Shown here: positions 1 through 37,246 of the stretch, one piece after another
How positions within the stretch are numbered: position 1 is the first letter of the stretch
Layout: each line of letters starts with the position of its first letter
Origin: an uncultured Actinomycetes bacterium
GTDB lineage: Bacteria > Actinomycetota > Thermoleophilia > UBA2241
Direction of reading: 5' to 3'
Length of the DNA: 64,000 bases
NCBI GenBank assembly: GCA_963764225.1
Contig: CAVXRL010000007.1
Location: 531,510 to 595,509 of the forward strand
Notes under the pieces: generated by a model
The model's input: only the letters and a program-made list of their open reading frames with translations
What the model was told of the DNA's origin: nothing
The model's database searches: none
Made by a program: the position numbers and the translations under genes

Positions 1-450
1 CACGGAGATCTCGTGCGTGTCCATCTCGCTGAGGTAGTCGTTCAGCCGGGCGATGTCGCCGACGTCCTGGAGCGTGCACTCGCGGACCCGGCCGGTGTCC
101 ACGTCGACGACGGCGATGCCCTCGCTGAAGTTGGTGAAGGCGACCCGCCCCGGCTCCATGAGGAAGTCGTTCTTGGGGTCGCGGCCGCAGAGCACGTACT
201 TGCTCGGCGACGAGGCGATGGCCTCCTCGACGACGTGCGGCGGGATGCGTACCATGCGCGTCTCCGCGTCGATCGTGCAGCCGCCGTCCTTGAAGATGTC
301 CCGCGCGTCCTGGGCCTCGACGAACACGCCCGTGCGCTCGAGCACCTCGAGCGAAGCGAGGTGGATGTCGTCGAGCTCCGACTCGGTGAACACGTTCACG
401 CTCAGCCCGCGGCTGCGCATGCCGCCGGCGAAGAGGTTGCGCTTCACACC
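1..450 (-). CDS. MttB-superfamily (trimethylamine/quaternary-amine:corrinoid) methyltransferase, 5' part only; gene continues past window start
   Basis: Minus-strand translation of 1-450 gives GTG-KRNLFAGGMRSRGLSVNVFTESELDDIHLASLEVLERTGVFVEAQDARDIF..., typical of the MttB-family N-terminus. GGAGG lies 6 nt before the GTG at 450. The plus-strand ORF 13..471 is its shadow. Confidence 0.6.
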
Positions 451-496: not shown

Positions 497-1894
497 TCAT
501 GCGCGCGCGCCCAGCCCGGCGTGCTCCTGGAAGCGCGCCACGCTGTTGATGGGCACCTCGAGCACCTCGGCGATGCGGAACTTGGCTTCCATCGCCCCGG
601 CGTGCGTGGGGTACGTGAGCTCCTGCACGGGGACACGGCCGAGGCCGAGGTCGCGGCGCACGTCGTGCATGGCGATGGGGTCGGCGAGATCGGTGACGGA
701 GCAACCGAGCTTGCCGGCCACGTAGGTCTTGGCGTCGCTGAGGCGCATGCCCCGGGTCATCTGCATGCGGCCCACCAGATCTCCGGTGGTCCGCATCCCG
801 CCCATGCCCGAAGCGAGCGCGTGGGTGCACGCCATGCCCAGCGGGTCACCCACGCCCACCTACAACCCGTCGCACTTGAGGATGTCGACGAGCGCGCGGG
901 AGACGCGTGACACGGCGTCCGCCGGCGGGTAGGGGCTCATCGGCACGCCGCCGACCCCCATGCCGACGTTGGGGTGCACGGGGATCTCCGCGACCGCCAT
1001 CGCCGGCTTGATGATGGCGCACGCCCGGGCCACGTTCCAGGCGATCGACTTGGTGGTGTTGACGTTGACGGCCGGCCCGAACATCGTCGCGCCGGCCTCC
1101 TGGGCGACCTCGAGCTGCGCCTTGGGCCACATGCCGGCGAGCCGCTTGCCCTTGTAGGTGAGCTCGCCGTGCATGCCCAGCACACACTCGCTCGCCATGC
1201 CGAGCTCGATGCCGATGTCGGGGTAGCGACCCTTGATGGTCTCGACGGCGGTCAGGGTCGCCAGGAAGTCGCCGTCGCCCGCGGCGCCGGCGGTGTCGAA
1301 GTCCATGCCGTCGGCGCCGGCCTCCCACATGCCCTCGGCGACGAACACCATGTCGCGGACCGCGTGGTCGATGGCCGCCACTTGCGCGTCGCGCGCCTCG
1401 TCGATCTTGCCGAGCGGCATGAGCTCCGACCAGTTCGGGATGGGCCCGTCGGGCATGGAGTAGCGGCCCAGGTCCGGCATCGCGCCGTATTGGCAGGGCG
1501 CGATGAGGTTGAGCTGGGCCACCTTCATCGCCTGTGCCTCGAAGCTCAGGATGGTCTTGATGGCCTTGTACGAGTAGTCGATGGCGAACAGCTCGAGCAT
1601 GTCCGCTCCGCGGTGGCTCTGGTAGCTGTAGAGCTCGTCCACCCGGGTGCCGGAGTCGAGGTTGCCGGAGCCGTCGAAGCTGAGGCAGACCTCGTCGCCC
1701 ATGTCCACCGCGCTGAACTTCGACTCGCTCGAGAAGATGTCCAGCAGGTGGTCGATCTCCGCCTCGGAGAGCGGAGAGGCCTTCGCGCGGCGGGCCCCGA
1801 GCGCGGAGCCTGCCACCAGGTCTTCGCGGATCTCCGCCGGAGTCATCTCGACGAGCCCACCGTCGCCGAGGCGCGTACGTACAGGTCGCTCCAC
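497..1894 (-). CDS. mtbB: Dimethylamine:corrinoid methyltransferase MtbB, copy 1, with in-frame UAG (pyrrolysine) codon at 860-862
   Basis: ORFs 860..1894 and 497..859 are in the same frame, separated only by TAG. The junction reads ...[45 protein letters not shown], matching the MtbB Pyl site (...[14 protein letters not shown]...). Conserved motifs are present across the 465 aa (RLGDG, YGAMPDLG, GADGMDFDTAGAAGDGDF, GMHGELTYKGKRLAG, FGPAVNVNTTKS, VGGVPM). Start is GTG at 1894 and the final stop is TGA. Confidence 0.85.
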
Positions 1895-1923: not shown

Positions 1924-1943
1924 ATTAGTTAGTTGTGTAACTA
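1924..1943. promoter_or_regulatory. Candidate TetR operator, inverted repeat TTAGTTA-gttgtg-TAACTAA, 30 bp upstream of mtbB1 start, in the mtbB1/tetR divergent region
   Basis: Inverted repeat seen directly in the sequence. An almost identical site lies upstream of mtbB2. Confidence 0.5.
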
Positions 1944-2110
1944 ATTGGTGAGGTAGACTACCAGACGCGATTGGGGTGTCAAGGAGACGCGGATGCCGAT
2001 CCGGCGGCCGGCGCGCGGTGGTCTGGCTCGCCGGCCGCGCAATCCGGTAAGGTGCGCATCGATGAGAAAGCGGGCCGTGCTGCGGCGCCCGCGGGAGACG
2101 CGAGGGAGGG

Positions 2111-2743
2111 GTGGCGGGCTTGACCAGGTACGAGCTTCCGTTCGACGATCCCACCCCCGACCTGTCGCCGACGGCGGCCAGGATCCTGGAGGCGGCCAGG
2201 CAGGTCCTCTCGAGGGACGGGTTACGGGGGCTCACGTTCGAGATCATCGCCCGGCAGGCGGGAGAGAACCCGGCCCTGATCCGCTACCACTTCGGCAGCA
2301 AGGCCGGGCTCCTGTCCGCGCTCGTGGACTCCGTGCTCTACCAGGAGGCCGTGGAGCTCGTCGAGCGACTCACGGACGTGCCCGCCGGCGACGAGCGGCG
2401 CGCCCGGCTGCTCGACCTGCACGAAGGGCTGCCGGAGGACACGGACGCGTACCGCAACTTCTTCGAGCTGATCCCGCACATCCTGCGCGACGAAGAGCTC
2501 CGGCCGCACCTGCGCGGCCTGTTCGACTGGTACCGCAAGCTGGACGCGTGGGCGCTCAAGGACGCCGGCGCCACGGAGCCGGCGGCGCACATCGCGCCCC
2601 TGGCGCTGCTCACGGTGGCGATCGCCGACGGCATCGCGCTGCAGAAGCTGGCCGACCCGGGCCTGGACTTCGAGCCGGCCTTCGCGCTGTGGCGCCGGCT
2701 CGTCCTCGGCCACGTGGAGTCGGGCGGCGAAGCAGCCGGCTGA
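2111..2743 (+). CDS. TetR/AcrR family transcriptional regulator
   Basis: N-terminal HTH with the TetR signature ...ILEAARQVLSRDGLRGLTFEIIARQAGENPALIRYHFGSKAGLL, followed by a helical ligand-binding domain. Divergent from mtbB1. Confidence 0.8.
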   Translation: MAGLTRYELPFDDPTPDLSPTAARILEAARQVLSRDGLRGLTFEIIARQAGENPALIRYHFGSKAGLLSALVDSVLYQEAVELVERLTDVPAGDERRARLLDLHEGLPEDTDAYRNFFELIPHILRDEELRPHLRGLFDWYRKLDAWALKDAGATEPAAHIAPLALLTVAIADGIALQKLADPGLDFEPAFALWRRLVLGHVESGGEAAG

Positions 2744-2820: not shown

Positions 2821-4287
2821 TCAGCCGAGCTCGGCGTCGGCGGCGGCGCAGATCCTCGCCAGCTCCGCCGCCTTCCCCGCGTCGAGCGGCTCGGGCACGT
2901 AGTTCTCGAGGATGTCGAGCCCGCGCTCGCGCGCGACCTCCACGGGGTCGCGCAGGTGCGCGCCGTCCGGCCCGATCTCCTGCCCGATCGAGCGCTCGAC
3001 CGTCTCCTTCATGTGCCGGCGGGTGTGCGCCTGCCCCAAAAAGTGCCCGCCGGGCCCCACCGCGTCGATCACGTCGAGCGCCAGCTGCTCCTCGTCCAGC
3101 TCGAGGTCGCGGAACGCGCTCGCCGCGCGCCGGTAGAGGTCGTCGTCCAGCAGCAGGTGTTCGGGGGTGAACAGCTGGTACCGGTTGGTCAGCCCTATGG
3201 TGGTCATGAGTTCCGAGCCGACGATGCCGGCGAGCATGACGGTGTGCGCCGTCTCGGCCGCCGCCAGCCAGCTGCCCGGCAGGTCGTCGTCGGTGCCGGC
3301 GTACCCGGTCATCGCCGGCAGCCCGAAGTGGTGCACGAGCTCGCCGGGCAGGAACAGCCCCTTGTGGTTCAGCGGCGCCGTCGTGAGCGCCGCCGTCCGC
3401 GGGTCGGCGTGCACCGGCAGGGGGAAGAGGATCACGGGCGCCCCGGGGTGCGCCAGCTGCACGCACACCGTGGCGCTCACGAGCTCGGCGAAGCCCATGA
3501 CGAGGGCGCCGGCCTTGGTGGCCGGCGCCGTCGTCCCGTAGGTCGGCATGGTGACGAAGCACACGGGGACGCCGGCCTCGGCGAACACGAGCGCCGCCTC
3601 GATGCCGTCCCTGTCGTTGACGAGCGGCTGCACGGTGCCGATGAGGTTGCTCAGCGGGGGGCGGCGGCGCAGCCGCTCCGCCCCGCCCGCGACAACCGTC
3701 GCCATCTCGACCGCGTACCTCGCCTGGCGCTCACCCTGGACCATGCCCTGCAGGTGCTTGGCGGTGTTGTTCCAGGCCGCGTCGAGCTCGTGCAGCGTGT
3801 GCGTGTCGCCGGTGTCGGCGGCGGCCACGGTGGGCCACCAGAACTGCAGCGAGCCGAGGTAGTCGACCATGCGCGTGATCGCGGAGAGGTCGTCCTTGGT
3901 CGGCGCCCGGCGCAGCCCGGTGCGCCAGTCGACGACCTCGGTGCCGCAGCCGTTGGTGGTGTTGTACGTCTCGCCGCTGGAGAGGTCGAGGTCGAGGGTA
4001 CCGTCGCGCGACCCGAGCCGGAAGGTGCGCGGGGCTTCGGCCAGCGCTGCCGTCACGAGGTCGGGCGCGAAGCGCACGACGCCGGACGCGCGGTCCACCC
4101 GCGCACCGTGCCCGGCCAGGATGTCGAGCGCCTTGGGCGAGCCGAACCTGACCCCGGTGCGCTCGAGCACCAGCAGGACGGCCTCCTTGTAGCGGTCGAG
4201 CCTGGCGTCGTCGTAGAAGCGCACGGTGAAGTCCGAGCCGAGCGGCAGCAGCGGCTGCCGCCGGCTGAGATCGAGCTGAGAGGTCAT
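2821..4287 (-). CDS. MttB-superfamily methyltransferase (COG5598), non-pyrrolysine member with no in-frame stop; likely quaternary-amine or other methylamine:corrinoid methyltransferase
   Basis: 488 aa from MTSQLDLSRRQPLLPLGSDFTVRFYDD... to ...AADAELG. MttB-family motifs are present (GGHFLGQAHT, LFTPEHLLLDDD). The ATG overlaps the mtbB2 TGA (ATGA). The long ORF 2821..5136 in the track over-extends the N-terminus. Confidence 0.8.
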   Translation of the reverse strand: MTSQLDLSRRQPLLPLGSDFTVRFYDDARLDRYKEAVLLVLERTGVRFGSPKALDILAGHGARVDRASGVVRFAPDLVTAALAEAPRTFRLGSRDGTLDLDLSSGETYNTTNGCGTEVVDWRTGLRRAPTKDDLSAITRMVDYLGSLQFWWPTVAAADTGDTHTLHELDAAWNNTAKHLQGMVQGERQARYAVEMATVVAGGAERLRRRPPLSNLIGTVQPLVNDRDGIEAALVFAEAGVPVCFVTMPTYGTTAPATKAGALVMGFAELVSATVCVQLAHPGAPVILFPLPVHADPRTAALTTAPLNHKGLFLPGELVHHFGLPAMTGYAGTDDDLPGSWLAAAETAHTVMLAGIVGSELMTTIGLTNRYQLFTPEHLLLDDDLYRRAASAFRDLELDEEQLALDVIDAVGPGGHFLGQAHTRRHMKETVERSIGQEIGPDGAHLRDPVEVARERGLDILENYVPEPLDAGKAAELARICAAADAELG

Positions 4288-5681
4288 GCAGTCACCCCGA
4301 GCCCGGCGTTGGCCTTGAAGCGCTCCACCGAGTTGATCGGGATGTCCAGCACCTCGGCGATGTGGAACTTGGCCTCCATCGTGCCGGGGTGGTTCGGATA
4401 GGTGAGGTCCTGCACCTGCATACGCGCGAGGCCGAGGTCGCGCCTGAGGTCGTGCATGGCGATGGTGTCGCTGAGGTCGAGGACGGAACACCCGAGCTTG
4501 TCGGCGACGTACTGCTTGGCCTGCGGAAGGCGCAGGCCCCGGGTCAGTTGCATGCGAGCCACCAGATCTCCGGCGGTCCGCATCCCGCCCATGCCCGAGG
4601 CGAGCGCGTGTGACGAGGCCATCCCGAGGGGATCCCCGACCCCTACCTACAACCCGTCGATCTTGCAGATGTCGACCAGGGCTTTGGAGGCCCGGGACGT
4701 CGCGTCGACGGGCGGGTACGGGGTCATGGGCACGCCGCCGACCCCCATGCCGGCGTTCACGTGCACGGGGATCGTGGCCTCGGCGGTGACCGGCTTGATG
4801 AGCGCGCAGGAGCGCGCGGTGTTCCAGGCGAGCGACTTCGTCGTGTTCACGTTGACGGCCGGCCCGAAGATCGTGGCGCCGGCCGCCTCGCAGGCGCGGA
4901 GCTGGCCGAGCGGCCACTGGCCGGCCAGCCGCGTGCCCTCGTACTCGAGCTGTCCGTGCATGCCGAGCACGAGCTCGGAGGCCTGGCCGATCTCGATGCC
5001 GACGTCGGGATAGGCGTCGCGCAGCCGGCGGGCGACGCGCAGGGTGGCGAGCAGGTCGGCGTCGCCGGAGGCGCCGGCGGTGTCGAAGTCGAGCCCGTCC
5101 ACGCCGGCCTCGATCATGCCCTCCGCCACCAGCCACATGTCGTGCTCGAGGTGCCCGGCGGCCTCCTCCTGGGCGGCGCGCGCCTCCGCGATCTTGCCGA
5201 GCGGCATCAGCTGCGACCAGTTGGGCGCCGGGCCGTCGGGCTGCGAGTAGCGGCCCAGGTCCGGCATGGCCCCGTAGTTGAGCGGCACGACCGTCTGCTG
5301 CTGCGCGTCCTTGAGCATCTGCGTCTGGAACGGCAGCACGGTGCGCACGGCCTTGTACGAGTAGTCGTGGTGCCAGAGCTCGATCATGTCGGCGCCGTGG
5401 TGGTTCTGGTAGATGACCTGCTCGAGCACCGGTGAGGAGATGTCCGCGTTGCCGGAGCCGTCGAAGCTCAGGACGACCTCGTCGCCGTAGTCGACGGAGC
5501 TGAACCGGGCCGCGGAGCTGAAGATGTCCAGGAGGTGGGCGATCTCGTCGTCGCTCAGCGGTTCGACCTTGGCCCGCTTGACGGCCGCCTCCGAGCCGGC
5601 GTGCAGGTCGGCCTCGAGCTCCGCGCGCGTCAGCTCGGTCAGCGACCCGTCACCGAGCCGCGTCGGGATGCGGTGTGCCAT
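4284..5681 (-). CDS. mtbB: Dimethylamine:corrinoid methyltransferase MtbB, copy 2, with in-frame UAG (pyrrolysine) codon at 4647-4649
   Basis: ORF 4647..5681 ends at TAG 4647-4649 and the same frame continues as ...[41 protein letters not shown]... to TGA at 4284. About 70% identical to copy 1. RBS GGGAGG lies 5 nt before the ATG at 5681. Confidence 0.85.
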
Positions 5682-5717: not shown

Positions 5718-5737
5718 TTAGTTAGTCGTATAACTAA
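5718..5737. promoter_or_regulatory. Candidate TetR operator, inverted repeat TTAGTTA-gtcgta-TAACTAA, 37 bp upstream of mtbB2 start
   Basis: Same half-sites and 6-nt spacer as the site at 1924-1943. Confidence 0.5.
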
Positions 5738-5825: not shown

Positions 5826-6119
5826 TCAGAATTCCTCCGCCTCGGCGCCGGCCGGCGGCTCCTGCATGACGCCGTCCGCGTCCTGGCGCTCGGCGGCCAG
5901 TCGCTCGATGCGGTCGACGAGCTCGCGCGGAGCCTCTCCGCTGGAGAGCGCCTCACGGTCGACGGTCCACTGCCCCTGCTCGTCGAAGCGGCACGCCTCC
6001 CAGCCGCTCTCGCACACCTCCACGAGGCCCTCGCCGGTCAGCGGCAGCCCGAACTGCCGCCGGATGACCTCGGCGGCCTCGTCCACGCTGAGTCTGTCCT
6101 GTTCGAAATCCATCGTCAC
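5826..6119 (-). CDS. Hypothetical small acidic protein (97 aa)
   Basis: Intact ORF with GC3-rich codon usage. No recognisable domain. Confidence 0.4.
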   Translation of the reverse strand: MTMDFEQDRLSVDEAAEVIRRQFGLPLTGEGLVEVCESGWEACRFDEQGQWTVDREALSSGEAPRELVDRIERLAAERQDADGVMQEPPAGAEAEEF

Positions 6120-9553: not shown

Positions 9554-10561
9554 TCAATCGAACGCCCCCGCCGCCGCGCGGACGGCGGCCGTGACGATCC
9601 GGTCGGCGTTCTCCTTCTTGACGTGCACGCCGTCGTAGAACGCGTCCGGATCACCGTGGAAGCTCTCGATGCGGCTGTAGTCGAGCACCGCGATGCGGTA
9701 GTCGCGGGAGAGGAACCGCAGGAAGCGCAGCAGGCGCAGCCGGCGATCCTCCCAGGCCTGCTCGCCCATCGCCCGGATGACGTAGGGATGGGTGGGCATG
9801 ATCACCAGGACCGGCGTCACGCCGATGCTGTTGAAGAGCCCGAGCGTCATCGCGAAGTACTGCTGGTTGAGGCCCCAGGAGTCTCGCCGCTGCCCGGTGC
9901 CGTGGCGGTTGGCCAGCTGTGCGGCGACGTACTGTCGCAGGGACTGATCGAGCGTGCGGCCCTGCGACTCCAGGTAGTCGTACCAGTTGTTGGTCATCAG
10001 TCCGTTGGAGGCGAACTGGTCCGGAGACCAGAACAGCGGCAGGCCGAGCGCCACGTACGCGACCTGGTCGGGCACGGCCTCGTCGAGGAGCTTCTGCGGG
10101 AAGTAGCGCGCGAGACGCTTGTCCTGCAGCAGGCCCGGGTCGAGGACCTTCTGGTAGAAGACGGAGGGCTGGATCGCCCACAAGCAGTGGAGCTTGACCT
10201 TGGGCGCCCGCTCGAGGCAGGAGCAGGCGAGCGCCCACGCGTCGGTGGGGCGCCCGTTGGAGAAGGCCGCATTGAAGGTGCGCAGCCCCGTCTTGCGGCC
10301 CAGGAGGCTCGGGTCGAAGCGCGTGCCGCGCGACCCGCCGAACACGATGAGCTCCGGCGGGGCCTTCAGGTTGTCGATGAGGTCGAGCTTGTAGGTGCGA
10401 TCGGACGCGCGGTGGGCCGAGGCGGGCAGCGACGCCGGGGGCGTGGCGTGGGTGAGCGGGAGGTCCACGTGCCCGGCCGCGGGCGGGAACATGAGGATGA
10501 ACCCGACCGAGAGACGCGCGGCCAGCCTGCCGACCCGCCGTGAACCCCTGCGCCGGTCCAT
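9554..10561 (-). CDS. Hypothetical secreted protein (signal peptide, about 335 aa)
   Basis: Starts MDRRRGSRRVGRLAARLSVGFILMF...; hydrophobic N-terminus, no known domain. The track ORF over-extends the N-terminus. Confidence 0.55.
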   Translation of the reverse strand: MDRRRGSRRVGRLAARLSVGFILMFPPAAGHVDLPLTHATPPASLPASAHRASDRTYKLDLIDNLKAPPELIVFGGSRGTRFDPSLLGRKTGLRTFNAAFSNGRPTDAWALACSCLERAPKVKLHCLWAIQPSVFYQKVLDPGLLQDKRLARYFPQKLLDEAVPDQVAYVALGLPLFWSPDQFASNGLMTNNWYDYLESQGRTLDQSLRQYVAAQLANRHGTGQRRDSWGLNQQYFAMTLGLFNSIGVTPVLVIMPTHPYVIRAMGEQAWEDRRLRLLRFLRFLSRDYRIAVLDYSRIESFHGDPDAFYDGVHVKKENADRIVTAAVRAAAGAFD

Positions 10562-10744
10562 CCGCGCGCTCCCTCGAGTGTGGACTGTCTCCAGCGGCAG
10601 GATAGAGGCACGGCGGGGCGGGCGGCGGCAGCGCCGTTGACGAGGTAAGTAGGAGCGGGGTGACGACTGCGAGCCGTGACAGCGGGCCGTCACTCTCGGC
10701 GCTCCGGGGGAATGCGTGAAGTAGGCCACCGAGGAGGTGCTTCC

Positions 10745-10912
10745 ATGGGAGGCAAGACGGACGAGAGCAAGGGTCGCCTGGAGAAGGCCGCCGGAGAGTT
10801 GACCGGCGACGAGAAGCTCAAGCGAGAAGGAGACGTGGACAAGGCCAGCGGCAAGGTCAAGAAGACCACCGACAAGGTCGCGGACAAGGCCAAGGACACG
10901 CTGGACAAGTGA
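10745..10912 (+). CDS. CsbD-family general stress protein
   Basis: MGGKTDESKGRLEKAAGELTGDEKLKREGDVDKASGKVKK... is the CsbD signature. Confidence 0.7.
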   Translation: MGGKTDESKGRLEKAAGELTGDEKLKREGDVDKASGKVKKTTDKVADKAKDTLDK

Positions 10913-11036
10913 TCTGCCGCGAGCGCGGCAGTGGGTCGGGGCCCGGGGCGAGAGAGCGCCCCGGGCCCCGCAGTACGTGGGGCGAGCGCGGCGGCGATCC
11001 GGGAGCGCGGCCGGCCGCGGCCGGCCGGAAGGACCG

Positions 11037-11330
11037 TCAGGGCAACTGGTTCACGAGGCCGGCGAACTCCTCGGGCGTGAAGGCGCGGAGCGTCTGGGTC
11101 GTGACGTAGCCCTTGGCGGCGGTCGCCATCGACATGAGGGCCGCGAACTCGTCGCCCGGGCCTTCCGCCACCATCACGTAGTCGTAGGCGCCCATCGTGG
11201 CATGGAAGCTGAGCACCTTGCCGCCGGCGGCCTCTATCCCTTTGACGACCTCCTGGTACCGCGCCGGCCCGCCCTTGAGGTCGGCCAGCCCCTTCGCGGT
11301 CAGGTTCGAGAGTATGACGTACTGCGGCAT
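11037..11330 (-). CDS. GYD domain protein
   Basis: The 97-aa protein ending ...GAYDYVMVAEGPGDEFAALMSMATAAKGYV matches the GYD family. Confidence 0.7.
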   Translation of the reverse strand: MPQYVILSNLTAKGLADLKGGPARYQEVVKGIEAAGGKVLSFHATMGAYDYVMVAEGPGDEFAALMSMATAAKGYVTTQTLRAFTPEEFAGLVNQLP

Positions 11331-11584
11331 GGCGAACCTCCGTCGTAGCGGGGTCGCACCCCTGTGTGCGGCGCCCTCTCACGGAGTTCTAGCCCGGGCC
11401 GTGCAATCGGCAACCGTTGCGACCGAGCCGGCTTCTCCGAGAGAGTCCATCATCCAGGGGGCGGCAGGAGCGCGAGCACGGTGACCGCGAGCGGGGAGTC
11501 GAGCGCCGGGATCGTCGGCGCGGCGTCAACCCGCATGCCTCGATGCGTGGAGCGGCGGTCGGACGCCCTCTCCGTCCGTGCGGG

Positions 11585-11761
11585 CTACGAGCGGAACTGG
11601 ACGAACAAGAGGCCGAGCACCGCGAGACACAGGCCACCGAGTGCCCAGCCGACGGTGCCGAACGAAGGGACGCTGCGCGCCGTGGCGCTGTAGACCGAGT
11701 AGTGGCCGAACGCCGCCACGACGATCCCGGAGCCGACCATCAGCCAGCCGATCTTCCTCAC
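11585..11761 (-). CDS. Possible small membrane protein (58 aa, GTG start), not in the ORF track
   Basis: VRKIGWLMVGSGIVVAAFGHYSVYSATARSVPSFGTVGWALGGLCLAVLGLLFVQFRS-TAG, with two hydrophobic helices. Confidence 0.25.
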   Translation of the reverse strand: MRKIGWLMVGSGIVVAAFGHYSVYSATARSVPSFGTVGWALGGLCLAVLGLLFVQFRS

Positions 11762-11925
11762 GGCAGTTGCCTCGCCTCACCCTCCATGTCAGTACGCTAC
11801 GCCGCGGGCATGGAATCGCTGTTAACTCCCCGTGAAGGAATGCGAACCGGGAAGGTCCCTGGAGGACGTGGAGCAACCGGAGTACAACGGCCGGGAGCCG
11901 TATGCCGTTTGCAGGGAAAGCGGAG

Positions 11926-12001
11926 TGGAGCCGACGCGGGGAATCGAACCCCGGACCCCATCATTACGAGTGATGTGCTCTGCCAGCTGAGCTACGTCGG
12001 C
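11926..12001 (-). tRNA. tRNA-Thr (anticodon CGU)
   Basis: Cloverleaf: acceptor GCCGACG/CGTCGGC, D-arm GCTC/GAGC, anticodon stem CATCA/TGATG with loop CTCGTAA, T-arm CGGGG-TTCGATT-CCCCG, CCA encoded. Confidence 0.85.
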
Positions 12002-12207
12002 CCATGTGAAGCCTAGGCATTCTAGGTCACCTCGTCTGCGCACGCAAAACCGTGGGCGCCTTCTTCTTCATGCTCGCCGAACGCCGACTCGATGTTTTGA
12101 CGTCCGAAACACGCTAAACTGCTCCGCACTCCGTCGACGGAGCAGCGGCGACCTCGCCGCGCCGGGCCGATCCCAGCCGGGGGCCCGCAGGACGACCAAG
12201 GAGGACC

Positions 12208-12612
12208 ATGAGGAAGTCACTGCTCACGCTCACCGTTGTGATCCTGGCGCTCGCGGCCGCCGTGCTGGCCGTCGTCGGCTTCACGGCTCCGCGCACGAGC
12301 GCCACATCCTCGCTGTGCCACAGCACGACGCTGTCGATCAAGGCGCCCAGGACCGCGAAGGCCGGTACGACCGTCAAGGTGACCGGCAGGGAGGCGCGCG
12401 CGCCGGCGCACACGGTGAAGGCGACGCTGCAGTACAGGAAGGCGACGGCGACCAGGTGGAAGAACGGCGCCTCGGCCAACCTCTCGTCGAGCGGCGCCTA
12501 CTCCCTGAAGTGGAAGGCGCCGGCGAAGACCGGCAAGTACAAGCTGCGGGTGCGCGTGACGCACGTATCAGCCTCGAACAAGTCCGCGGTCAAGACGATC
12601 GCCGTCAAATAG
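12208..12612 (+). CDS. Hypothetical secreted protein (signal peptide, 134 aa)
   Basis: MRKSLLTLTVVILALAAAVLAVVG... signal peptide. Ends with a TAG stop. Confidence 0.5.
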   Translation: MRKSLLTLTVVILALAAAVLAVVGFTAPRTSATSSLCHSTTLSIKAPRTAKAGTTVKVTGREARAPAHTVKATLQYRKATATRWKNGASANLSSSGAYSLKWKAPAKTGKYKLRVRVTHVSASNKSAVKTIAVK

Positions 12613-12880
12613 GTCAAAGTCCTGCTCGCTTGCGGCCGGCGGCGCTCTCTCCGTGCTGGAGCGCCGCCGGCCTCGTTCGTGACGGGAGCCGCCGCCCGTT
12701 CTGTTCATGTGAATGCTCGCACATGGACTGATTGGCGTGCAGACGGCCCCTTTGCAGGCCCCGCAGGAGACCAGGCGCCCATTGTGGCCCTAGGGTGTCT
12801 GCCCTACCATCTACTCGTATGAAGTACCGGCGCCGAGGTGGGGGGGAACCTGCTTCCTGAGACCGGCCGAGGGGAGAACG

Positions 12881-13546
12881 GTGGAACGCGCAGCTGAGAT
12901 CCGCGTCCTGCTCGTCGACGATCACGCGATCGAGCGGCAGGGGGTACGGTCGCTGCTCGACGCGCAACCCGACATCCAGGTCGTCGCCGAGGCCGGCGAC
13001 GGTCTCGAAGCTCTTCCTCTCGTCTCCCAGTACCACCCTGACGTCGTCATCACCGAGACCATCATGCCGCGCATGAACGGGCTCGAGCTCACCGGGCAAC
13101 TGCTGCGCCGGTACCCCGACCTCAAGGTCCTCGTCCTCACCCGCAACGACCGCGAGGACTGCGTGCTGAGGCTGGTGCAGGCCGGTGCGGGGGGATACCT
13201 GCTCAAGACGGTGGACCGCGCCGACCTGCTGGCGGCGCTCCGCGCCGTCATGCGCGGGGGGCGTGTGCTGCAGCCGTCCGCGCTCGACTGCGTGATGGAG
13301 GACTACCTGCAGCGCGTGCGTGAGCCCTCCGCGCGCCGCTATGGGGTGGAGCTCACGGCCCGCGAGCGCGAGGTCCTCAAGCTCATCGCCGAGGGCAACA
13401 CCAACCAGGACATCGCCGACTTGCTGTGCCTCAGCCGCAAGACGGTGGAGACCCACCGCAGCAACATCATGGACAAGCTCAGCCTCCACAAGGTCACGGA
13501 CCTCGTCAGGTACGCCATCCGCGAGGGTCTGGTCGGGCTGGATTAG
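12881..13546 (+). CDS. NarL/LuxR-family two-component response regulator
   Basis: REC domain (VLLVDDH...ITETIMPRMNG) plus C-terminal LuxR HTH (LTAREREVLKLIAEGNTNQDIADLLCLSRKTVETHRSNIMDKL). TAG stop. Confidence 0.8.
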   Translation: MERAAEIRVLLVDDHAIERQGVRSLLDAQPDIQVVAEAGDGLEALPLVSQYHPDVVITETIMPRMNGLELTGQLLRRYPDLKVLVLTRNDREDCVLRLVQAGAGGYLLKTVDRADLLAALRAVMRGGRVLQPSALDCVMEDYLQRVREPSARRYGVELTAREREVLKLIAEGNTNQDIADLLCLSRKTVETHRSNIMDKLSLHKVTDLVRYAIREGLVGLD

Positions 13547-13720
13547 GTCGTCCCGTCGCGGCGGGGAGGAGTGCTTCGGGCTGCCGGGGAGCCGATCCTG
13601 GATGGAGTGGCGGCGCCTCGTTCGCCCGCATTTGTGACACGATTCACCCAGAGGGATTATTATTGACGCAGTGAACGAAGGCTTGGGAGAGAAGAGAGTG
13701 GCGCTCACCTGGGTGACGGC

Positions 13721-14596
13721 ATGACCGAGGTCGGCATCGTCGCGGTCGTCAACCACGGGTTGCCGGAGCTGCGCACTGCGCTCCGGACCATCCGCGAGAC
13801 CGCTCCGCCCGAGGCGCAGCTGGCCGTGATCGCCCTCGACCTGGGGGACCATGAGGGCACCTACCTGCTGCGCCAGTACCTGCGCGGGCGCATCCACGCG
13901 GTGCAGTTCGACCACCGGCAGGACCACGGCTGCCACTGCGGCCTGGACCGCTCCGCACGCCTGGTGCGCGGCGACTACGTGGCGCGCGTCGACGACACGC
14001 TCCAGTTGAAGCCGGGCTGGGCAGAGAAGGCGGTCGCGGCGCTGGAGGCGGACCCGGGCATCGGCTGTCTCTCCCTCGTCCCCCCGAGCGACTATCAGCG
14101 AGGCCGCGGACGGCCGCGGACGGTGAACGTGGAGCCGATCGAGGTCGACCACCTCGACATGCGCTGCTTCGTGGTCCGGCGCGAGCTCCTGGCGCGGATC
14201 GGGTGCGGGGTCGCGGCCGGCCGGGAGGACGGCTGCGGGTTCCAGGAGGCGGTGCGCGCTCAGGGGCTCCGCCTCGCCTTCCTGCCGGGGCAGGCAAGCC
14301 CGCTCCGCAGCGTGGAGGTGCCGGCGGAGTACGACATCTGGCCGCTCGAAGAGGAGTTGCCGCCTCACGAAGGAGCGAGCGGCGCGCTCCAGCGTCTCGA
14401 GCAGGCGTATCAGCTCGGTGACGACGTGCTGCTCACGTGTCTCTCGTGCGGCGGCACGGAGCTCGAGACCATCGCCGCCCGCATCCGCTTCTGCGAGCGG
14501 CATCAGGTCGCCACCGGCTTCTGGTACGAGCTGCGCTGCCCCGAGTGCGGCGAGCTCCTCTACAAGGACGACTACCAGTTCCGGTGCCCCGACTGA
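13721..14596 (+). CDS. Glycosyltransferase family 2-like protein with C-terminal Cys-pair (zinc-ribbon-like) region
   Basis: N-terminus resembles a GT2 fold. C-terminus has CLSCGG...CERH and CPECG...CPD motifs. Confidence 0.45.
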   Translation: MTEVGIVAVVNHGLPELRTALRTIRETAPPEAQLAVIALDLGDHEGTYLLRQYLRGRIHAVQFDHRQDHGCHCGLDRSARLVRGDYVARVDDTLQLKPGWAEKAVAALEADPGIGCLSLVPPSDYQRGRGRPRTVNVEPIEVDHLDMRCFVVRRELLARIGCGVAAGREDGCGFQEAVRAQGLRLAFLPGQASPLRSVEVPAEYDIWPLEEELPPHEGASGALQRLEQAYQLGDDVLLTCLSCGGTELETIAARIRFCERHQVATGFWYELRCPECGELLYKDDYQFRCPD

Positions 14597-14687
14597 CCTC
14601 CTCCGCGATCAGCCGAGCGCTCCGCTACTTCGCCGCTTGATCTCGACACCAAGGCTCAGAGCCTGGCATGCCACGACGTGGGCCTCC

Positions 14688-15161
14688 TCAGAACGGCTTG
14701 GCGCTCATCGCCCACACGGTGACCGTCCAGGCCACGACGGCAATGCCGAGCGCCAGGGAGGCCGCAGCCGCCAGCCGACGGCTTCGGCGCCGCGCCGACA
14801 GCCAAATCAGCACCGTCCCCGCGATCAGCAGCAAGAAGCCGCCATCGGACGTGACGTAGCCGAGTACGACCCAGCCGGGATCCGAAGCGCCGTCTCCGAA
14901 CTCGCGCGAGCGGACCAGTTCGGCGCCGACGCGCATGACCACGTAGGAGGGAAGCGTCGCGAGCAGCAGGACGCGGAAGGCGAGGCGCCGCGACCAGACC
15001 GCCACGTCCGGACCGGAGAGAACCGCGATGTACGCCGCGGCCGCGGCTGCGCCGATGAGGGCGGCGGCGCCCGCTACGTGCAGGAGCAGAGGCAGGGCCA
15101 GATCGCCCGGCCGTCCGGCGGCGACCAGGGCGAAGAGGGCCGAGAGGATATCGGGCATCAT
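14688..15161 (-). CDS. Hypothetical integral membrane protein
   Basis: Several hydrophobic helices. Start MMPDILSALFAL overlaps the upstream stop (ATGA). Confidence 0.5.
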   Translation of the reverse strand: MMPDILSALFALVAAGRPGDLALPLLLHVAGAAALIGAAAAAAYIAVLSGPDVAVWSRRLAFRVLLLATLPSYVVMRVGAELVRSREFGDGASDPGWVVLGYVTSDGGFLLLIAGTVLIWLSARRRSRRLAAAASLALGIAVVAWTVTVWAMSAKPF

Positions 15162-15649
15162 GCGCCCGGCCTCCAGATCATGAGGGCGAACTCGGCGACG
15201 GTCGCTGCAGCCGCGCCAAGCTCCAGCCAAAGGAGGCCTCTGACATGCGGTACCGGTAGTCCCGTGTCGGCGGCTTTGCCCGTCATGCGCCTGAGACGCG
15301 AGATCCCCATGTCACTGAGGCCTCCGATCACCAGCCACAGCAGGATGGCAGCGATGACCCAGGTGTCCAGGAGCGAATAGGCGTCGCGCGTGAGCACCAG
15401 CCAGAGGCCGAGCACGAGCGTTGCCGCCACCCCCAAGCGAAGCACGGCGGCGGACACACGGACGAGGCCAGCGAGCGCGGGCATCGTCGCCGAGTCGCCG
15501 GACGTGATGGCTGCAGCGATCACCAATGCCGTCACCGGTGCGCCGACAGCGAACGCGGCGAGGACGTGCAGCGAAAGGAGCCAGCCGGCGCCGCTCACGG
15601 CGGTCAAGATCATGGATGCGATCCCTGGCGTGTCGACACGTTCGACCAC
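15158..15649 (-). CDS. Hypothetical integral membrane protein
   Basis: Four or more predicted transmembrane helices. Confidence 0.5.
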   Translation of the reverse strand: MVERVDTPGIASMILTAVSGAGWLLSLHVLAAFAVGAPVTALVIAAAITSGDSATMPALAGLVRVSAAVLRLGVAATLVLGLWLVLTRDAYSLLDTWVIAAILLWLVIGGLSDMGISRLRRMTGKAADTGLPVPHVRGLLWLELGAAAATVAEFALMIWRPGA

Positions 15650-15744
15650 CTTTCTCTGCGTGGGGTCTTCCCTCTGTGCAGTGAGCAGGTGCGCCGTGCG
15701 TCGACACGCGCGCGGGTCGAGAAACGAGAGGGGGAAGAGGAAGC

Positions 15745-15820
15745 TGGAGCCCGGTCGCGGATTCGAACCGCGGACCCCCTCCTTACCATGGAGGTGCTCT
15801 GCCAGCTGAGCTAACCGGGC
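15745..15820 (-). tRNA. tRNA-Thr (anticodon GGU)
   Basis: Acceptor GCCCGGT/ACCGGGC, anticodon stem CCTCC/GGAGG with loop ATGGTAA, T-loop TTCGAAT, CCA encoded. Confidence 0.85.
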
Positions 15821-15821
15821 T

Positions 15822-15906
15822 TGGTGGGGGAGCTAGGATTTGAACCTAGGTAGGCTGCGCCAACGGATTTACAGTCCGCCCCCTTTAACCACTCGGGCAC
15901 TCCCCC
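15822..15906 (-). tRNA. tRNA-Tyr (anticodon GUA), long variable arm
   Basis: GGGGGAG...CGGAC-TGTAAAT-CCGTT...long variable arm...CTAGG-TTCAAAT-CCTAG-CTCCCCC-A-CCA. Lies 1 nt from tRNA-Thr. Confidence 0.85.
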
Positions 15907-16000
15907 GGGAGCCGTGGAATCGTAGCCCAAAGCCGGAGCGCTTTCAACCGCGGTGGAGGCGGTCAGCGGGGAGGTCGTCCGAGGCCTGAGAAGAAGACAG

Positions 16001-16029
16001 CCGGGGTCGTCAGGGGATGACGACCCCGG
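16001..16029. terminator. Perfect 12-bp stem hairpin CCGGGGTCGTCA-ggggA-TGACGACCCCGG; T-rich tract follows on the minus strand (possible minus-strand intrinsic terminator)
   Basis: Seen directly. Lies in the 486-bp non-coding gap between tRNA-Tyr and tRNA-Met. Confidence 0.35.
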
Positions 16030-16392
16030 CCGGAAAGGTTGTGCCGCCCGGCCAGGGGAAGCGGGCGGGCACAGTGACTCGCAGTGTCATCATGCCGCCG
16101 TCGGCTGGAGGGGGATCCAGGTCCGGGGCGCTTGTGATGACAAGCGCATTCTACCCGAAATACGGACACACGCAACCGCTTCGTGGACGAATCGCTCCGG
16201 GCGGTTTGTACCCTTTGTCCTGCTTTTTCCGCCATGCGGACAGCGGCTCGCGGAGGCGCGGATCGAGACCCGGACCGAGGCGCGATCGAGGCGCGGATCA
16301 AGGCGCCGATGGAGGCGCAGGATGACCTCTGCGCGTCTCCTTGGCGCGGATTGAGCACCCTTTGGGCCTGTGGTACCGTAAGCATCCGCCGT

Positions 16393-16469
16393 GGCGGCGT
16401 AGCTCAGCTGGTCAGAGCAGCGGAATCATAATCCGCGTGTCGTAGGTTCGAGTCCTACCGCCGCTACCA
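16393..16469 (+). tRNA. tRNA-Met (anticodon CAU); elongator Met or possibly Ile2 precursor
   Basis: GGCGGCG-TA-GCTC...GAGC-A-GCGGA-ATCATAA-TCCGC...GTAGG-TTCGAGT-CCTAC-CGCCGCT-A-CCA. Confidence 0.85.
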
Positions 16470-16544
16470 GCACTCATCCCTTCGGTCGCCGGCCTGTCGA
16501 GTGGAGGGCAGGCGGACGAGCTGCCGACTTCGTCTCCGTCCTGG

Positions 16545-16724
16545 TCACGCGGGACTCCATGCGCAGGCCTGGACCGGATCCGCGGGCAGCGACCATTCGG
16601 TCTTTCGCGATCCCACAGGCGCTTCGCTGCCCTCGGCCCGGACGTCCTGCTCGTCCGCGGACTCGCTCAAGCTCATCTCCTCCATGCGCTCCAACGCTCG
16701 CCAGAACTCGATACACATCACGCT
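16545..16724 (-). CDS. Possible small hypothetical protein (about 58 aa from MCIEFWRALERMEEM...)
   Basis: GC3-rich codon usage only. No homology recognised. Confidence 0.2.
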   Translation of the reverse strand, partial: SVMCIEFWRALERMEEMSLSESADEQDVRAEGSEAPVGSRKTEWSLPADPVQACAWSPA

Positions 16725-17094
16725 CACCTCTTGACGCTCAAAGGCGGATCGCCTCTCCGCAGCCCGGGGGCCACCCAACTGCTTTCCGGGTTCCCGGGTC
16801 CTGCCCACGGAAACACCCCGCCGTGGGGCGCCCGGACGGGAAGGCGCTCGTCCTCGGGCGCGATGACGGCGGACGGACGACGACGGCGTCCCCTCATCGT
16901 GAACTCCGACGGTAGCGGCCTCTAGTGTGATGCGAGAGGCGGTGAGGAGGGAGCCGCAGCGGTTGCCGGAGTGAAGTGCCAGCCGTCCAGAGGGGGCCTC
17001 GTTTGCCACAGCACTTCAACGGGAAAGTAACTTTTCGTCCGAGATACCTCACCGTCGTCGTGTGGCGGAACGCGAAGCTGAGAGGGGTCCCACC

Positions 17095-17397
17095 ATGAAG
17101 AAGACCTTGATCGTGATGTCGGTCGTAGCCTTGGTCCTGGCCGTCATGGCCGTGCCGGTACTGGCGGCGCCAGGCGGCGCGCCGGCGGCGCACGGCGTCG
17201 ACGGCAAGACTTTCGGCGCGGCCGTGAGCGGGCTTGCTCAGAGCTCGCCCGGCGCCGTAGCCGCGCACGTGAGCGGCGGCAACTCCGGCGGCATGCCCGC
17301 CGCGCACGGACTCTCCGGCGCTGACTTCGGCGCCGCAGTCAGCGGCCTCGCGCAGAGCGCCCCGGGAGCCGTTGCAGCTCACGTCTCCGGCAAGTAG
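17095..17397 (+). CDS. Small secreted repeat protein (two copies of about 30 aa: FGAAVSGLAQS-PGAVAAHVSG)
   Basis: Signal peptide MKKTLIVMSVVALVLAVMAVPVLAAPG, then an internal tandem repeat. Confidence 0.5.
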   Translation: MKKTLIVMSVVALVLAVMAVPVLAAPGGAPAAHGVDGKTFGAAVSGLAQSSPGAVAAHVSGGNSGGMPAAHGLSGADFGAAVSGLAQSAPGAVAAHVSGK

Positions 17398-17522
17398 AAG
17401 CTGACGCGATCAGCGTAACGTCCACGGGGGGGCGGTCCCGGTCTTGGCCGGGACCGCCCCCCCGTCACTCGTGCTCCTGCTCGTGCCGCGGGTCCAGCTA
17501 CCGCGGCGCCGTCTCAACGATC

Positions 17523-18506
17523 TCAGTGAGCCGGTTGCGGCATGATCGCGCGGTCGCTGAGGGTCTTCATGAAGGCGACGAGCGCCAGCTCCTCGCGCTT
17601 CGTCAGGCCGAGGTCACCGAGCTCGTCCGTGTTGACGGTCTCGGGCACTTCAGGCGCCGCCCAGCCTGCTCCCGCGACGTCGCGCGTGTTGTAGAAGTGC
17701 ACGATGTCGTAGAGCGTCGCGAAGTAGCCATTGTGGCCGTAGGGGCGGTTCCTGGCGACGTTGCGCAGCGTCGGCACCTTGAACTTGCCCATCTCGGCCA
17801 TCCAGACGGCGTCGTCGTACCCTGCCGCGTAGAGGAAGCCGCCGAGACCGAGGTCCACGTCGCTGCTCCCAGTCAGCGCTGCGATCGTGGGGTTCGCCGG
17901 GAGGCCGAGGTTGTCGTAGGTGTGGTCGGTGAACAGCGCTTTGCCCGCGGCGATGCCGGTCGAGTCCCTCGAGGGCTCGCTCAGGTGGCACAGGTTGCAC
18001 TTGGCCTTGCCGTTGAAGAGCTTGAGCCCCAGCTTCTGCTGCGCCGTGAGCGCGTCCCTCTGGCCCGCCATATACGAATCGAAGCGCGAGTTGAAGCGGT
18101 TGACGGAACTGGACGACTCGTAGGCGGCGATGGCGAGGGCCATGTCGTCGTAGGCTTGATCGACATCAGTCCAGTCCGTGTGCGGGAAGACCTGGAGGAA
18201 GAGGTCGGCGTAGTCGCTGGCGCCGATGTCCCGGATGACCTCGGCCTTGCTCGCGTTGTGCATCTCGACGGGGTTCAGGAAGGGACCTTGGGCCTGCTCG
18301 GCGAGCGGCGATCCGAGCGTCCAGCCGGTGGCGCGGCCGTCCCAGAACATGCCGCCGATCCAGAGGCCCTCCGCTTCGTCGAAGTACAAAATCGGGCTCC
18401 AGGCGGTGTAGGCCCAGGACGGACAGGATTGAGTAGCCCGTTCGGACAACGCCCCGCCGGGTCGGCCTGCCGCCGGCCCGGCGGGCGGCAACGGCCCGAA
18501 CCCCAC
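17523..18506 (-). CDS. Cytochrome c peroxidase (CCP/MauG) family protein; only the second haem motif (CNLCH) is in frame, so the 5' region is possibly frameshifted
   Basis: ...FNGKAKCNLCHLSEP...PTLRNVARNRPYGHNGYFATLYDIVHFYN matches the CCP C-terminal haem domain. Confidence 0.6.
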   Translation of the reverse strand: MGFGPLPPAGPAAGRPGGALSERATQSCPSWAYTAWSPILYFDEAEGLWIGGMFWDGRATGWTLGSPLAEQAQGPFLNPVEMHNASKAEVIRDIGASDYADLFLQVFPHTDWTDVDQAYDDMALAIAAYESSSSVNRFNSRFDSYMAGQRDALTAQQKLGLKLFNGKAKCNLCHLSEPSRDSTGIAAGKALFTDHTYDNLGLPANPTIAALTGSSDVDLGLGGFLYAAGYDDAVWMAEMGKFKVPTLRNVARNRPYGHNGYFATLYDIVHFYNTRDVAGAGWAAPEVPETVNTDELGDLGLTKREELALVAFMKTLSDRAIMPQPAH

Positions 18507-28118: not shown

Positions 28119-28240
28119 ACGGCAAGGCCTACAACCTCCCGATCCCCGGCAGCAAGTAGCCCGAGGCGCAGCGAGGGAGACGCGAAGGGGCCGGGGGTGC
28201 TGTGCACCCCCGGCCCCTTCGCTCGTCCGGGCGACCGCGC

Positions 28241-29339: not shown

Positions 29340-29367
29340 GGGCGCGGCTCGGTGGAGGGCGGCGGCG

Positions 29368-30675: not shown

Positions 30676-30695
30676 GCGGAGGTCCTTTCGGTGCT

Positions 30696-32078: not shown

Positions 32079-32128
32079 GGCGACCTCACCGAGCAGGTCG
32101 TGTTCGCTAGCGCGTGTCGCTCATGGGC

Positions 32129-32393: not shown

Positions 32394-32451
32394 GCTGGCC
32401 CTCCGTGGTCGTGGTCGTGGCTGGCTGGTCGTGCGCTCGCGGCGTGCCGGC

Positions 32452-33855: not shown

Positions 33856-33860
33856 GGAAC

Positions 33861-35228: not shown

Positions 35229-35298
35229 GTGTACCTCGTGCGGGCGGCCGGGCTGCCCTGAGTCGGGTCAGCCCGGCCGCCGCTGGTCTTGCGTCAGG

Positions 35299-37233: not shown

Positions 37234-37246
37234 TCCTCCGCTCTCG

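Follow-up and report, generated by a model that had tools for sequence, protein, structure and literature searches.

A second dimethylamine methyltransferase gene with a conserved in-frame UAG, most probably read as pyrrolysine, in an uncultured Thermoleophilia bacterium

We found that mtbB2, one of two mtbB paralogs in the 64-kb stretch of DNA analyzed here (the window), is very probably the gene of a full-length and functional dimethylamine:corrinoid methyltransferase (MtbB). Its in-frame UAG, codon 345, appears to be translated in an anaerobic Thermoleophilia host, most probably as pyrrolysine (Pyl), and it would be read by tRNA-Pyl(CUA) and PylS, with the biosynthesis genes pylBCD encoded elsewhere in the genome, outside the window. 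In the MtbB family, the active-site pyrrolysine activates the methylamine so that its methyl group can pass to the Co(I) corrinoid protein, and the residue inserted at codon 345 would have the same catalytic role in this host. To our knowledge, this family has long been defined by an in-frame UAG that all mtbB paralogs carry. The coordinates of the genes and elements discussed below are collected in Table 1.

Table 1. Features of the two mtbB operons and their surroundings (positions are those of the window)
Feature	Position	Strand	Remarks
mttB, 5' part, downstream of mtbB1	1..447	-	In-frame TAG (codon 328) past the left edge of the window
mtbB1 (paralog)	497..1894	-	466 codons; TAG codon 345 at 860-862; hairpin as in mtbB2 at 765-796
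Palindrome TTAGTTA-N6-TAACTAA, mtbB1 copy	1925..1944		31-50 nt before the mtbB1 start; in the divergent upstream region common to mtbB1 and the TetR gene
Gene of a TetR-family regulator, flanked by the two mtbB operons	2111..2743	+	Pfam TetR_N, TetR_C_31
MttB-superfamily gene, non-Pyl type (no in-frame stop)	2821..4287	-	Pfam MTTB over 31-498/500
mtbB2 (dimethylamine:corrinoid methyltransferase gene)	4284..5681	-	466 codons; translation, PF09505, TIGR02368
mtbB2 post-UAG part, 120 codons	4287..4646	-	Probably one protein with the upstream part; coding GC pattern, dN/dS
Predicted mRNA hairpin, 13 bp, loop AGAU	4552..4583	-	nt +67 to +98 from the U of UAG; extends PYLIS_2 helix 2
Putative pyrrolysine codon of mtbB2 (in-frame TAG/UAG, codon 345)	4647..4649	-	Aligned to the RF02509 UAG
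Palindrome TTAGTTA-N6-TAACTAA, mtbB2 copy	5718..5737		37-56 nt before the mtbB2 start codon

The gene, its paralog and conservation across the TAG

The reading frame of mtbB2 (reverse strand, 5681 to 4284) begins with an ATG at 5679-5681, preceded by a GGGAGGA ribosome-binding site, ends with a TGA at 4284-4286, and contains a single internal stop, the TAG of codon 345. Its product matched Pfam family PF09505 with 525.7 bits, covering positions 4-462 of the 463-position profile, and the NCBIfam equivalog TIGR02368 with 404.3 bits (cut-off, 369.1) over positions 1-464 of 466. Both mtbB copies span positions 4-462 of the PF09505 profile (E-values of 1e-157 and 4e-162) and both exceed the TIGR02368 cut-off (404 and 417 bits vs 369). 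A search of the PDB found no solved structure related to mtbB2 by sequence, and a search of a plasmid collection gave no match. Judged by its sequence, mtbB2 is confirmed as a genuine second Pyl-type dimethylamine methyltransferase gene.

The first-pass annotation had described mtbB2 as a second paralog with the same in-frame UAG, about 70% identical to mtbB1, and this description was borne out: the TAG is codon 345 in both copies, and their ungapped identity is 67% at the amino acid level and 73% at the nucleotide level, which makes the earlier figure a fair one. The TAG of mtbB2 also has the sequence context given there (KIDGL before it, VGVGDPLGM after it). This agreement between the two copies is far beyond chance. 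Identity is 64% before the TAG and 75% after it. The nine codons that follow the TAG (VGVGDPLGM) encode the same protein sequence in both paralogs with eight synonymous differences, and the dN/dS between the copies, calculated on either side of the TAG as had been proposed, is 0.33 downstream versus 0.57 upstream.

The TAG was found at the codon-345 position in all 66 distinct homologous copies (37 genome loci), which belong to MAGs of Thermoleophilia, other Actinomycetota, and Bacillota, and in every one of them the C-terminal part is in frame and starts exactly 3 nt later. A random error or a pseudogene, considered very unlikely from the two paralogs alone, is excluded by this constant association of the TAG with an in-frame C-terminal part. 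Nearly all of the database homologs listed are 344-aa fragments that end at the TAG codon. An independent assembly (L001; ENA ERZ25039483) contains an identical mtbB2, including the TAG, which argues against a sequencing error.

The region downstream of the TAG also behaves as coding sequence. The codon-position GC pattern of mtbB2 is unbroken across the TAG (4201-5550), and after the TAG the values for GC1, GC2, and GC3 are 0.69, 0.45, and 0.88, a coding-type pattern. The conservation expected downstream of the TAG holds in 25 orthologs, with a dN/dS of 0.183 downstream versus 0.197 upstream and of 0.065 in the first nine post-TAG codons, these being pairwise values that are phylogenetically non-independent and in which the extreme GC3 bias keeps dS compressed. 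By these patterns, translation clearly runs on through the TAG of mtbB2. The same codon also serves as a stop in this genome, as indicated by the response-regulator gene at 12881-13546, which terminates with TAG here and with TGA in seven orthologs. Since UAG is still a stop at other genes, its decoding would be either conditional or ambiguous, which is also the case in other bacteria that use Pyl.

Operon context, pyrrolysine machinery and alternative readings

The two mtbB copies each head one of two neighboring operons. The mtbB2 operon consists of mtbB2 and a non-Pyl MttB homolog, whose ATG overlaps the TGA of mtbB2 (ATGA) and which scored 272 bits against the model of the Pyl-type trimethylamine methyltransferase (cut-off, 525). 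In the mtbB1 operon, mtbB1 is accompanied by an mttB of the Pyl type and by genes for a corrinoid protein and a further MttB homolog. In L001, where mttB is present in full length (...FVAGL*SDSKLG...), it is followed by the corrinoid-protein gene (L001 16732-17358, just beyond the window) and then by another non-Pyl MttB gene. No corrinoid-protein gene adjoins mtbB2. The synteny of mtbB2, the MttB-like gene, and the TetR gene is kept in ~25 loci. The palindrome found before each operon has two matches in the window, with 0.00 expected, and in 27 loci it is conserved upstream of the orthologs of both genes, mtbB2 and mtbB1. It is likely an operator, probably that of the intervening TetR regulator, which would be a candidate repressor binding to both copies. 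The window also contains an [FeFe]-hydrogenase together with HydE/F/G, which points to an anaerobe. The host is an uncultured, high-GC (~70%) Thermoleophilia bacterium of soil and wetland, from a group in which pyrrolysine use has been noted before.

No pyl genes or tRNA-Pyl were detected in the 64-kb window using ARAGORN, the Rfam, Pfam, and NCBIfam models on ~50 ORFs, and tblastn with the Methanosarcina mazei PylRS, and the same search found no pylT, pylS, or pylBCD within 10 kb of mtbB in the 37 genome loci. The radical-SAM genes of the window are HydE and HydG. The window has five tRNAs, none with a CUA anticodon.

The machinery is present in relatives. A related MAG (GCA_012514235.1; JAAZAR01) codes for PylSc, PylSn, PylB, PylC, and PylD, all exceeding the NCBIfam cut-offs, and for a tRNA-Pyl(CUA), and one of its contigs (JAAZAR010000040.1) carries an mtbB2 ortholog with 83% identity, the TAG kept, and the same synteny. 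In the pyl locus of a relative (L160), PylB, PylC, and PylD scored 444, 337, and 212 bits, each over its cut-off, and the same locus recurs in four other contigs of high GC (from the ENA accession series of L001 and with the same PylSc clade). There is a large PylSc clade on contigs of 67-76% GC, some members of which are named by NCBI as the large subunit of a Thermoleophilia pyrrolysine--tRNA ligase. The relatives have a split synthetase, with a PylSc of 286 aa and a PylSn of 109 aa, and their pyl locus, in which one corrinoid-protein gene and one radical-SAM gene separate pylSc from pylSn and pylT-pylDCB, is over 10 kb away from the methyltransferase genes. The sources of the related MAGs and contigs are soils, peat, a lake, sediment, and an anaerobic digester. 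The first-pass annotation had argued for functional Pyl decoding; the read-through part of this claim is supported by conservation and selection, and the pyl genes were seen in relatives, not in the 64-kb window. Actinobacteriota MAGs have been reported to express Pyl-encoding mtbB and mttB (PMC10805028), and a count made in 2022 included only two PylRS-encoding genomes of Actinomycetota (PMC9630628); these were the only two publications found that link pyrrolysine with Thermoleophilia, Actinomycetota, or Actinobacteriota.

Gene callers annotate the two sides of the TAG as ORFs of 344 and 112 aa, an ATG is located eight codons past the TAG in mtbB2, and the window is devoid of pyl genes, all of which would fit a split or truncated gene, in which translation would stop at the UAG after 344 residues and the 112-120 codons beyond it would be a small subunit with its own initiation or else a remnant in decay. 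We regard this as highly improbable, considering that the codons from the TAG to that ATG are the most constrained of the gene (dN/dS of 0.065, with VGVGDPLG identical in the paralogs through eight synonymous changes), and such constraint at the protein level would not be seen in an untranslated spacer. In addition, all copies, whatever their phylum, keep the frame with exactly 3 nt, the profile match runs without a break over the TAG site, and the codon is TAG, never TGA or TAA, throughout the 66 copies, whereas a genuine stop of this genome swaps with TGA. The chance that the TAG arose as an artifact of sequencing or assembly in a long-read metagenome is practically negligible. Errors or pseudogenes do occur in such assemblies, since a second copy in one locus (L015) has a frameshift beside the TAG site, but the same TAG recurs in the independent assembly, the paralog, and 66 distinct copies that come from many studies and sequencing platforms.

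If the UAG is translated, another amino acid could in principle be inserted, either a standard one by a near-cognate or suppressor tRNA or one assigned through a genome-wide conversion of UAG to sense. The identity of residue 345 is deduced, the window has no tRNA-Pyl, and genome-wide reassignment of UAG to Pyl is reported for some archaea, as cited in a preprint (bioRxiv 10.64898/2026.05.24.727570). Read-through of this kind is nevertheless very unlikely here, as other genes of the window use TAG as a stop, with TGA in its place in orthologs, no tRNA of the window (0/5) has a CUA anticodon, the TAG occupies the catalytic position of Pyl in a family that is defined by this residue, and related genomes with the orthologous gene have a complete pyl set and tRNA-Pyl(CUA). 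Insertion of pyrrolysine at codon 345 is the reading that we prefer.

A predicted hairpin in the mRNA downstream of the UAG

The Rfam model RF02509 (PYLIS_2) represents a predicted structure following the UAG of mtbB (Theil Have et al. 2013, PMC3639795). The two TAG regions matched it with 67.2 and 62.6 bits (gathering score, 36), scores that derive here mostly from conserved coding sequence, and the mtbB2 TAG coincides with the UAG (positions 1-3) of this model of the mtbB UAG region. For helix 1 of PYLIS_2, the match was rejected as evidence of a recoding structure, with 57% of cells paired, no covariation, and pairing that does not exceed that of shuffled sequences. Over its full 100 nt, the region of mtbB2 has a fold that is not better than that of shuffles (z = +0.28).

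The hairpin at +67 to +98 is present in the minimum-energy and the centroid folds of both paralogs. Among the 66 copies, 94% of its cells are paired and compensatory changes are found at four pairs, three of them between two wobble positions. Its covariation score was reached by none of 500 shuffles, although the sequences are related and part of the covariation signal comes, therefore, from few events. Within the hairpin region dS is halved, and the loop is encoded by the rare codons GGA and GAT. As a tentative model, to which we assign a rather low probability, the hairpin, maintained by compensatory changes at synonymous positions and with a loop in rare codons, might be a genuine cis-acting mRNA element of bacterial mtbB, from Bacillota to Actinomycetota, that favors Pyl insertion over termination or protects the mRNA; in combination with the TetR/operator pair before the two operons, it could make the expansion of the code conditional on methylamine supply.

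Significance and comparison with known systems

Nothing new about how pyrrolysine works is added by mtbB2; rather, a complete multi-gene cluster of pyrrolysine "customers" (two mtbB and mttB) is now placed in Thermoleophilia. In the habitats named above, bacteria that are not methanogens may hence use up di- and trimethylamine under anaerobic conditions, competing with methylotrophic methanogenesis. For annotation, it should be noted that standard gene callers split such genes into the two pieces mentioned above. The conserved putative operator and the covarying hairpin could provide handles on the regulation of UAG read-through in bacteria that use UAG as a stop.

The best-known counterparts are MtbB1/2/3 of Methanosarcina, which belong to the same family (PF09505, TIGR02368), matched end to end and over the equivalog cut-off. 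The two systems share the single in-frame UAG at the homologous position, the presence of several UAG-bearing paralogs per genome, and the clustering with corrinoid-protein and mttB genes. However, the host here is a high-GC (~70%) Thermoleophilia bacterium and not a methanogenic archaeon, each mtbB is coupled to a gene of the MttB superfamily (a non-Pyl member in the case of mtbB2), the pyl genes are not adjacent, and UAG is not avoided as a stop.

The resemblance extends to the bacterial Pyl systems of Acetohalobium arabaticum, Desulfitobacterium hafniense, and Bilophila, since the relatives of our genome have the split pylSn and pylSc, pylB, pylC, pylD, and tRNA-Pyl(CUA), and UAG has a dual meaning in both cases. 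They differ in the phylum, Actinomycetota here, and in the position of pylSc, which in the relatives lies apart from pylSn and pylT-pylDCB. With respect to PYLIS_2, helix 2 of the model is present in both TAG regions, but it is longer here (13 bp) and covarying, whereas helix 1 is unsupported.

In-frame UAG of the mtbB paralogs

We found that mtbB2, the dimethylamine methyltransferase gene under study, is a single 466-codon frame whose sole internal stop is a TAG at codon 345, and that its paralog mtbB1 likewise has 466 codons and a TAG at codon 345, as the first-pass annotation had described for homologous codons. Its estimate of about 70% identity also holds (67% for protein and 73% for DNA in a gap-free alignment), with 64% before the TAG and 75% after it. 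The window contains no further mtbB copy. Pfam PF09505 (Dimeth_Pyl) spans the TAG in both (profile positions 4-462 of 463), NCBIfam TIGR02368, the equivalog model for dimethylamine--corrinoid protein Co-methyltransferase, scores them at 404 and 417 bits, above its curated cut-off of 369 bits, and Rfam RF02509 (PYLIS_2), a model covering 100 nt after the mtbB UAG, matches both sites with its UAG on the window TAG. Therefore, the stop sits at the known pyrrolysine position of the family. Searching the PDB by sequence found no solved structure of a relative.

Features of the window and of related loci
Feature	Location	Strand	Remarks
mtbB1	497-1894	(-)	TAG 860-862
mtbB2	4284-5681	(-)	TAG 4647-4649
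mttB	1-447; 15236-16717 in L001 (independent assembly)	(-) in window	downstream of mtbB1
MttB-superfamily gene	2821-4287	(-)	488 residues, without internal stop
TetR-family gene	2111-2743	(+)	between the two mtbB operons
Palindrome	1925-1944; 5718-5737		TTAGTTA-N6-TAACTAA
13-bp hairpin	765-796; 4552-4583	(-)	+67 to +98 after each UAG; lengthened helix 2 of RF02509
Third mtbB paralog	about 300-600 nt upstream of mtbB2, in relatives	opposite	divergently transcribed
NarL-type response-regulator gene	12881-13546	(+)	terminal TAG
[FeFe]-hydrogenase cluster	27222-39480	(-)
HydG	32452-33936	(-)
HydA-like large subunit	35299-37233	(-)
Two composite proteins	40936-42990; 50588-52504	(-)	iron-hydrogenase large-subunit-like domain and 4Fe-4S motifs joined to histidine-kinase or ATPase domains
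Second NuoE/F-like gene set	45328-49307		with pyridine-nucleotide oxidoreductase genes
pyl locus of relatives	L160 (JAAZAR010000071.1) 10001-17961; also L155-L159
PylSc	JAAZAR010000071.1 pyl locus		320 bits, cut-off 178
PylSn	JAAZAR010000071.1 pyl locus		127 bits, cut-off 51
PylD	JAAZAR010000071.1 pyl locus		212 bits, cut-off 150
PylC	JAAZAR010000071.1 pyl locus		337 bits, cut-off 248
PylB	JAAZAR010000071.1 pyl locus		444 bits, cut-off 348

GC content by codon position keeps one frame across both TAGs (over 5550-4201 and 1650-451) in a genome of ~70% GC and a GC3 of ~0.95, and the nine codons past the TAG encode the identical peptide VGVGDPLGM in both paralogs despite eight synonymous differences. 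Conservation continues downstream, as the first reading had predicted: against 25 orthologs (81-92% identical), the Nei-Gojobori dN/dS of mtbB2 is 0.197 for codons 1-344, 0.183 for codons 346-460 and, in the nine codons directly following the TAG, 0.065. Between the paralogs it is 0.57 before the TAG and 0.33 after it; these ratios are pairwise and non-independent, with dS compressed by the GC3 bias, but the upstream-versus-downstream contrast is still fair.

Nearly all of the best 120 database homologs are 344 residues long, having been truncated at this same codon during gene calling. Scanning one genome per species yielded 37 loci with about 70 mtbB copies. Almost all loci belong to MAGs of uncultured Actinomycetota, Thermoleophilia or others, sampled in Danish soils, Swedish lakes, an anaerobic digester and a bog at Stordalen Mire; a few are from Bacillota. 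The TAG stands at the homologous codon at the start of 66 distinct 100-nt regions, with the C-terminal part exactly 3 nt later; the two exceptions are a partial match in locus L036 and a frameshifted mtbB1-type copy in locus L015 (about 14294-14975), the only broken copy seen, where a 1-nt shift beside the TAG marks a pseudogene or else an error of long-read assembly. In the independent assembly L001, mtbB2 is identical, TAG included. Taken together, these findings rule out a sequencing error and a pseudogene, the two readings that the first-pass annotation had held very unlikely, and also a split gene.

Gene neighborhood and candidate operator

The stop codon of mtbB2 overlaps the start of the adjacent MttB-superfamily gene (ATGA), so the two are translationally coupled. 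The latter scores 272 bits, far under the cut-off of 525 for Pyl-type trimethylamine methyltransferases, and is therefore a non-Pyl MttB member; the pairing is kept in about 25 Thermoleophilia loci (83-94% identity). Downstream of mtbB1, the mttB gene also contains an in-frame TAG, at codon 328. This TAG lies just beyond the window and was read in L001, where the gene is followed by one for a corrinoid protein and by a further MttB gene of the non-Pyl type. Three UAG-containing genes thus lie within about 7.5 kb.

Each mtbB start codon is preceded, at a distance of 31-56 nt, by a perfect palindrome, for which zero matches are expected by chance in this GC-rich window of a 70% GC genome. In 27 loci both mtbB orthologs have it at the equivalent upstream position. 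It is probably an operator, presumably of the TetR protein encoded between the operons.

In many relatives there is a third mtbB paralog, which has diverged further (about 56-60% identity) and also has the TAG at the same codon (L002, L003, L006-L008, L010-L012, L014, L017, L019, L020, L026 and L030). The window has in its place a small ORF (5826-6119) and a gene of the metallo-beta-lactamase fold.

The hydrogenase cluster further holds NuoF-like and NuoE-like subunits, the maturases HydF and HydE, an aspartate-ammonia-lyase/fumarase-type gene, a GAF histidine kinase and a response regulator. Judging from gene content, the [FeFe]-hydrogenase with HydE, HydF and HydG points to an anaerobe, a lifestyle that fits corrinoid-dependent methylamine use. 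The two composite proteins, beside which the second NuoE/F-like set is found, may be hydrogen- or redox-sensing kinases.

Pyrrolysine machinery in the lineage

ARAGORN found five tRNAs in the window, all ordinary and none of them tRNA-Pyl. About 50 window ORFs scanned against Pfam and NCBIfam included no PylS, PylB, PylC or PylD (HydE and HydG account for the two radical-SAM/BATS genes), and tblastn with the Methanosarcina mazei PylRS, a query checked against the PDB, gave no match in the window or the 37 loci. We also searched metagenome contigs with the PylRS motif RPMLAPNL, back-translated for high GC. A PylSc homolog was encoded on 114 of the 116 matching contigs, about 90 of them with 67-76% GC, some also with tRNA-Pyl(CUA) and some with mtbB/mttB genes. 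A protein search from one such PylSc retrieved a large clade, some of whose members carry the NCBI name 'pyrrolysine--tRNA(Pyl) ligase large subunit [Thermoleophilia bacterium]'.

One PylSc (P0229) is located on JAAZAR010000071.1, from the same MAG (GCA_012514235.1) as locus L026 (JAAZAR010000040.1), which has an mtbB2 ortholog of 83% identity with the TAG kept and the same MttB-like and TetR neighbors. Besides the genes tabulated, its pyl locus holds a corrinoid protein and tRNA-Pyl(CUA), and four more high-GC contigs from the ENA accession series of L001 share the layout. The order in relatives is pylSc, corrinoid protein (opposite strand), radical-SAM, pylSn, a Germane-domain gene, tRNA-Pyl and pylD-pylC-pylB, set among housekeeping genes >10 kb from the methyltransferase genes. 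A full pyl set in a MAG with an mtbB2 ortholog, and in the four contigs, means that the lineage has a complete pyrrolysine system. Functional Pyl decoding, proposed from the paired amber codons, is supported by translation past the TAG and by the pyl genes of relatives; although the window holds neither pyl genes nor tRNA-Pyl, we infer that its own genome encodes the machinery.

Downstream hairpin and uses of UAG

The RF02509 matches were rejected as proof of a recoding structure, since helix 1 is unsupported (57% of cells paired and no covariation among 66 copies). In mtbB2 the 100-nt stretch is no more stably folded than shuffled sequence (z = +0.28); in mtbB1 it is (z = -2.76). The 13-bp hairpin is present in every predicted fold, with 94% of cells paired in the 66 mtbB copies, compensatory changes at synonymous sites in four pairs (three linking two wobble positions) and a covariation score reached by 0 of 500 shuffles, part of this signal coming from a few events in related sequences. 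Its codons have a dS half that of the remaining gene and a dN of zero, and its loop, GGAGAU, consists of codons rare in the window, GGA (5.7% of Gly codons) and GAT (7.3% of Asp codons). Because of the relatedness of the copies and the small number of events, these data are suggestive of a conserved hairpin, which might bear on UAG decoding.

The mtbB pyrrolysine UAG has long been known in Methanosarcina and several bacteria, and to our knowledge its presence in every mtbB paralog is a defining property of the family. This agrees with PMC3639795. PylRS was reported in two Actinobacteria in a 2022 survey (PMC9630628), and in the 2023 Stordalen Mire study Actinobacteriota MAGs expressed Pyl-encoding mttB and mtbB, with the genus 'Bog-752' listed among the most active methylotrophs (PMC10805028). 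One of our loci (L021) belongs to a MAG with the matching isolate name bog_752, presumably of common origin with that genus. The in-frame UAG of mtbB2, correctly read in the first-pass annotation, is an ordinary family feature in a moderately unusual host; anything new could develop only from the probable operator and the hairpin.

UAG also serves as a stop here. The 44 automatically selected ORF ends of the window are 35 TGA, 3 TAA and 6 TAG, two of the last being the internal mtbB TAGs. The terminal TAG of the NarL-type response-regulator gene is replaced by TGA at the same codon in seven orthologs, which indicates that UAG terminates there; the mtbB UAG, by contrast, is invariant. In this genome UAG thus does end genes as well, and it is not reassigned genome-wide. 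Such dual use of UAG is what is known in Pyl-decoding bacteria.
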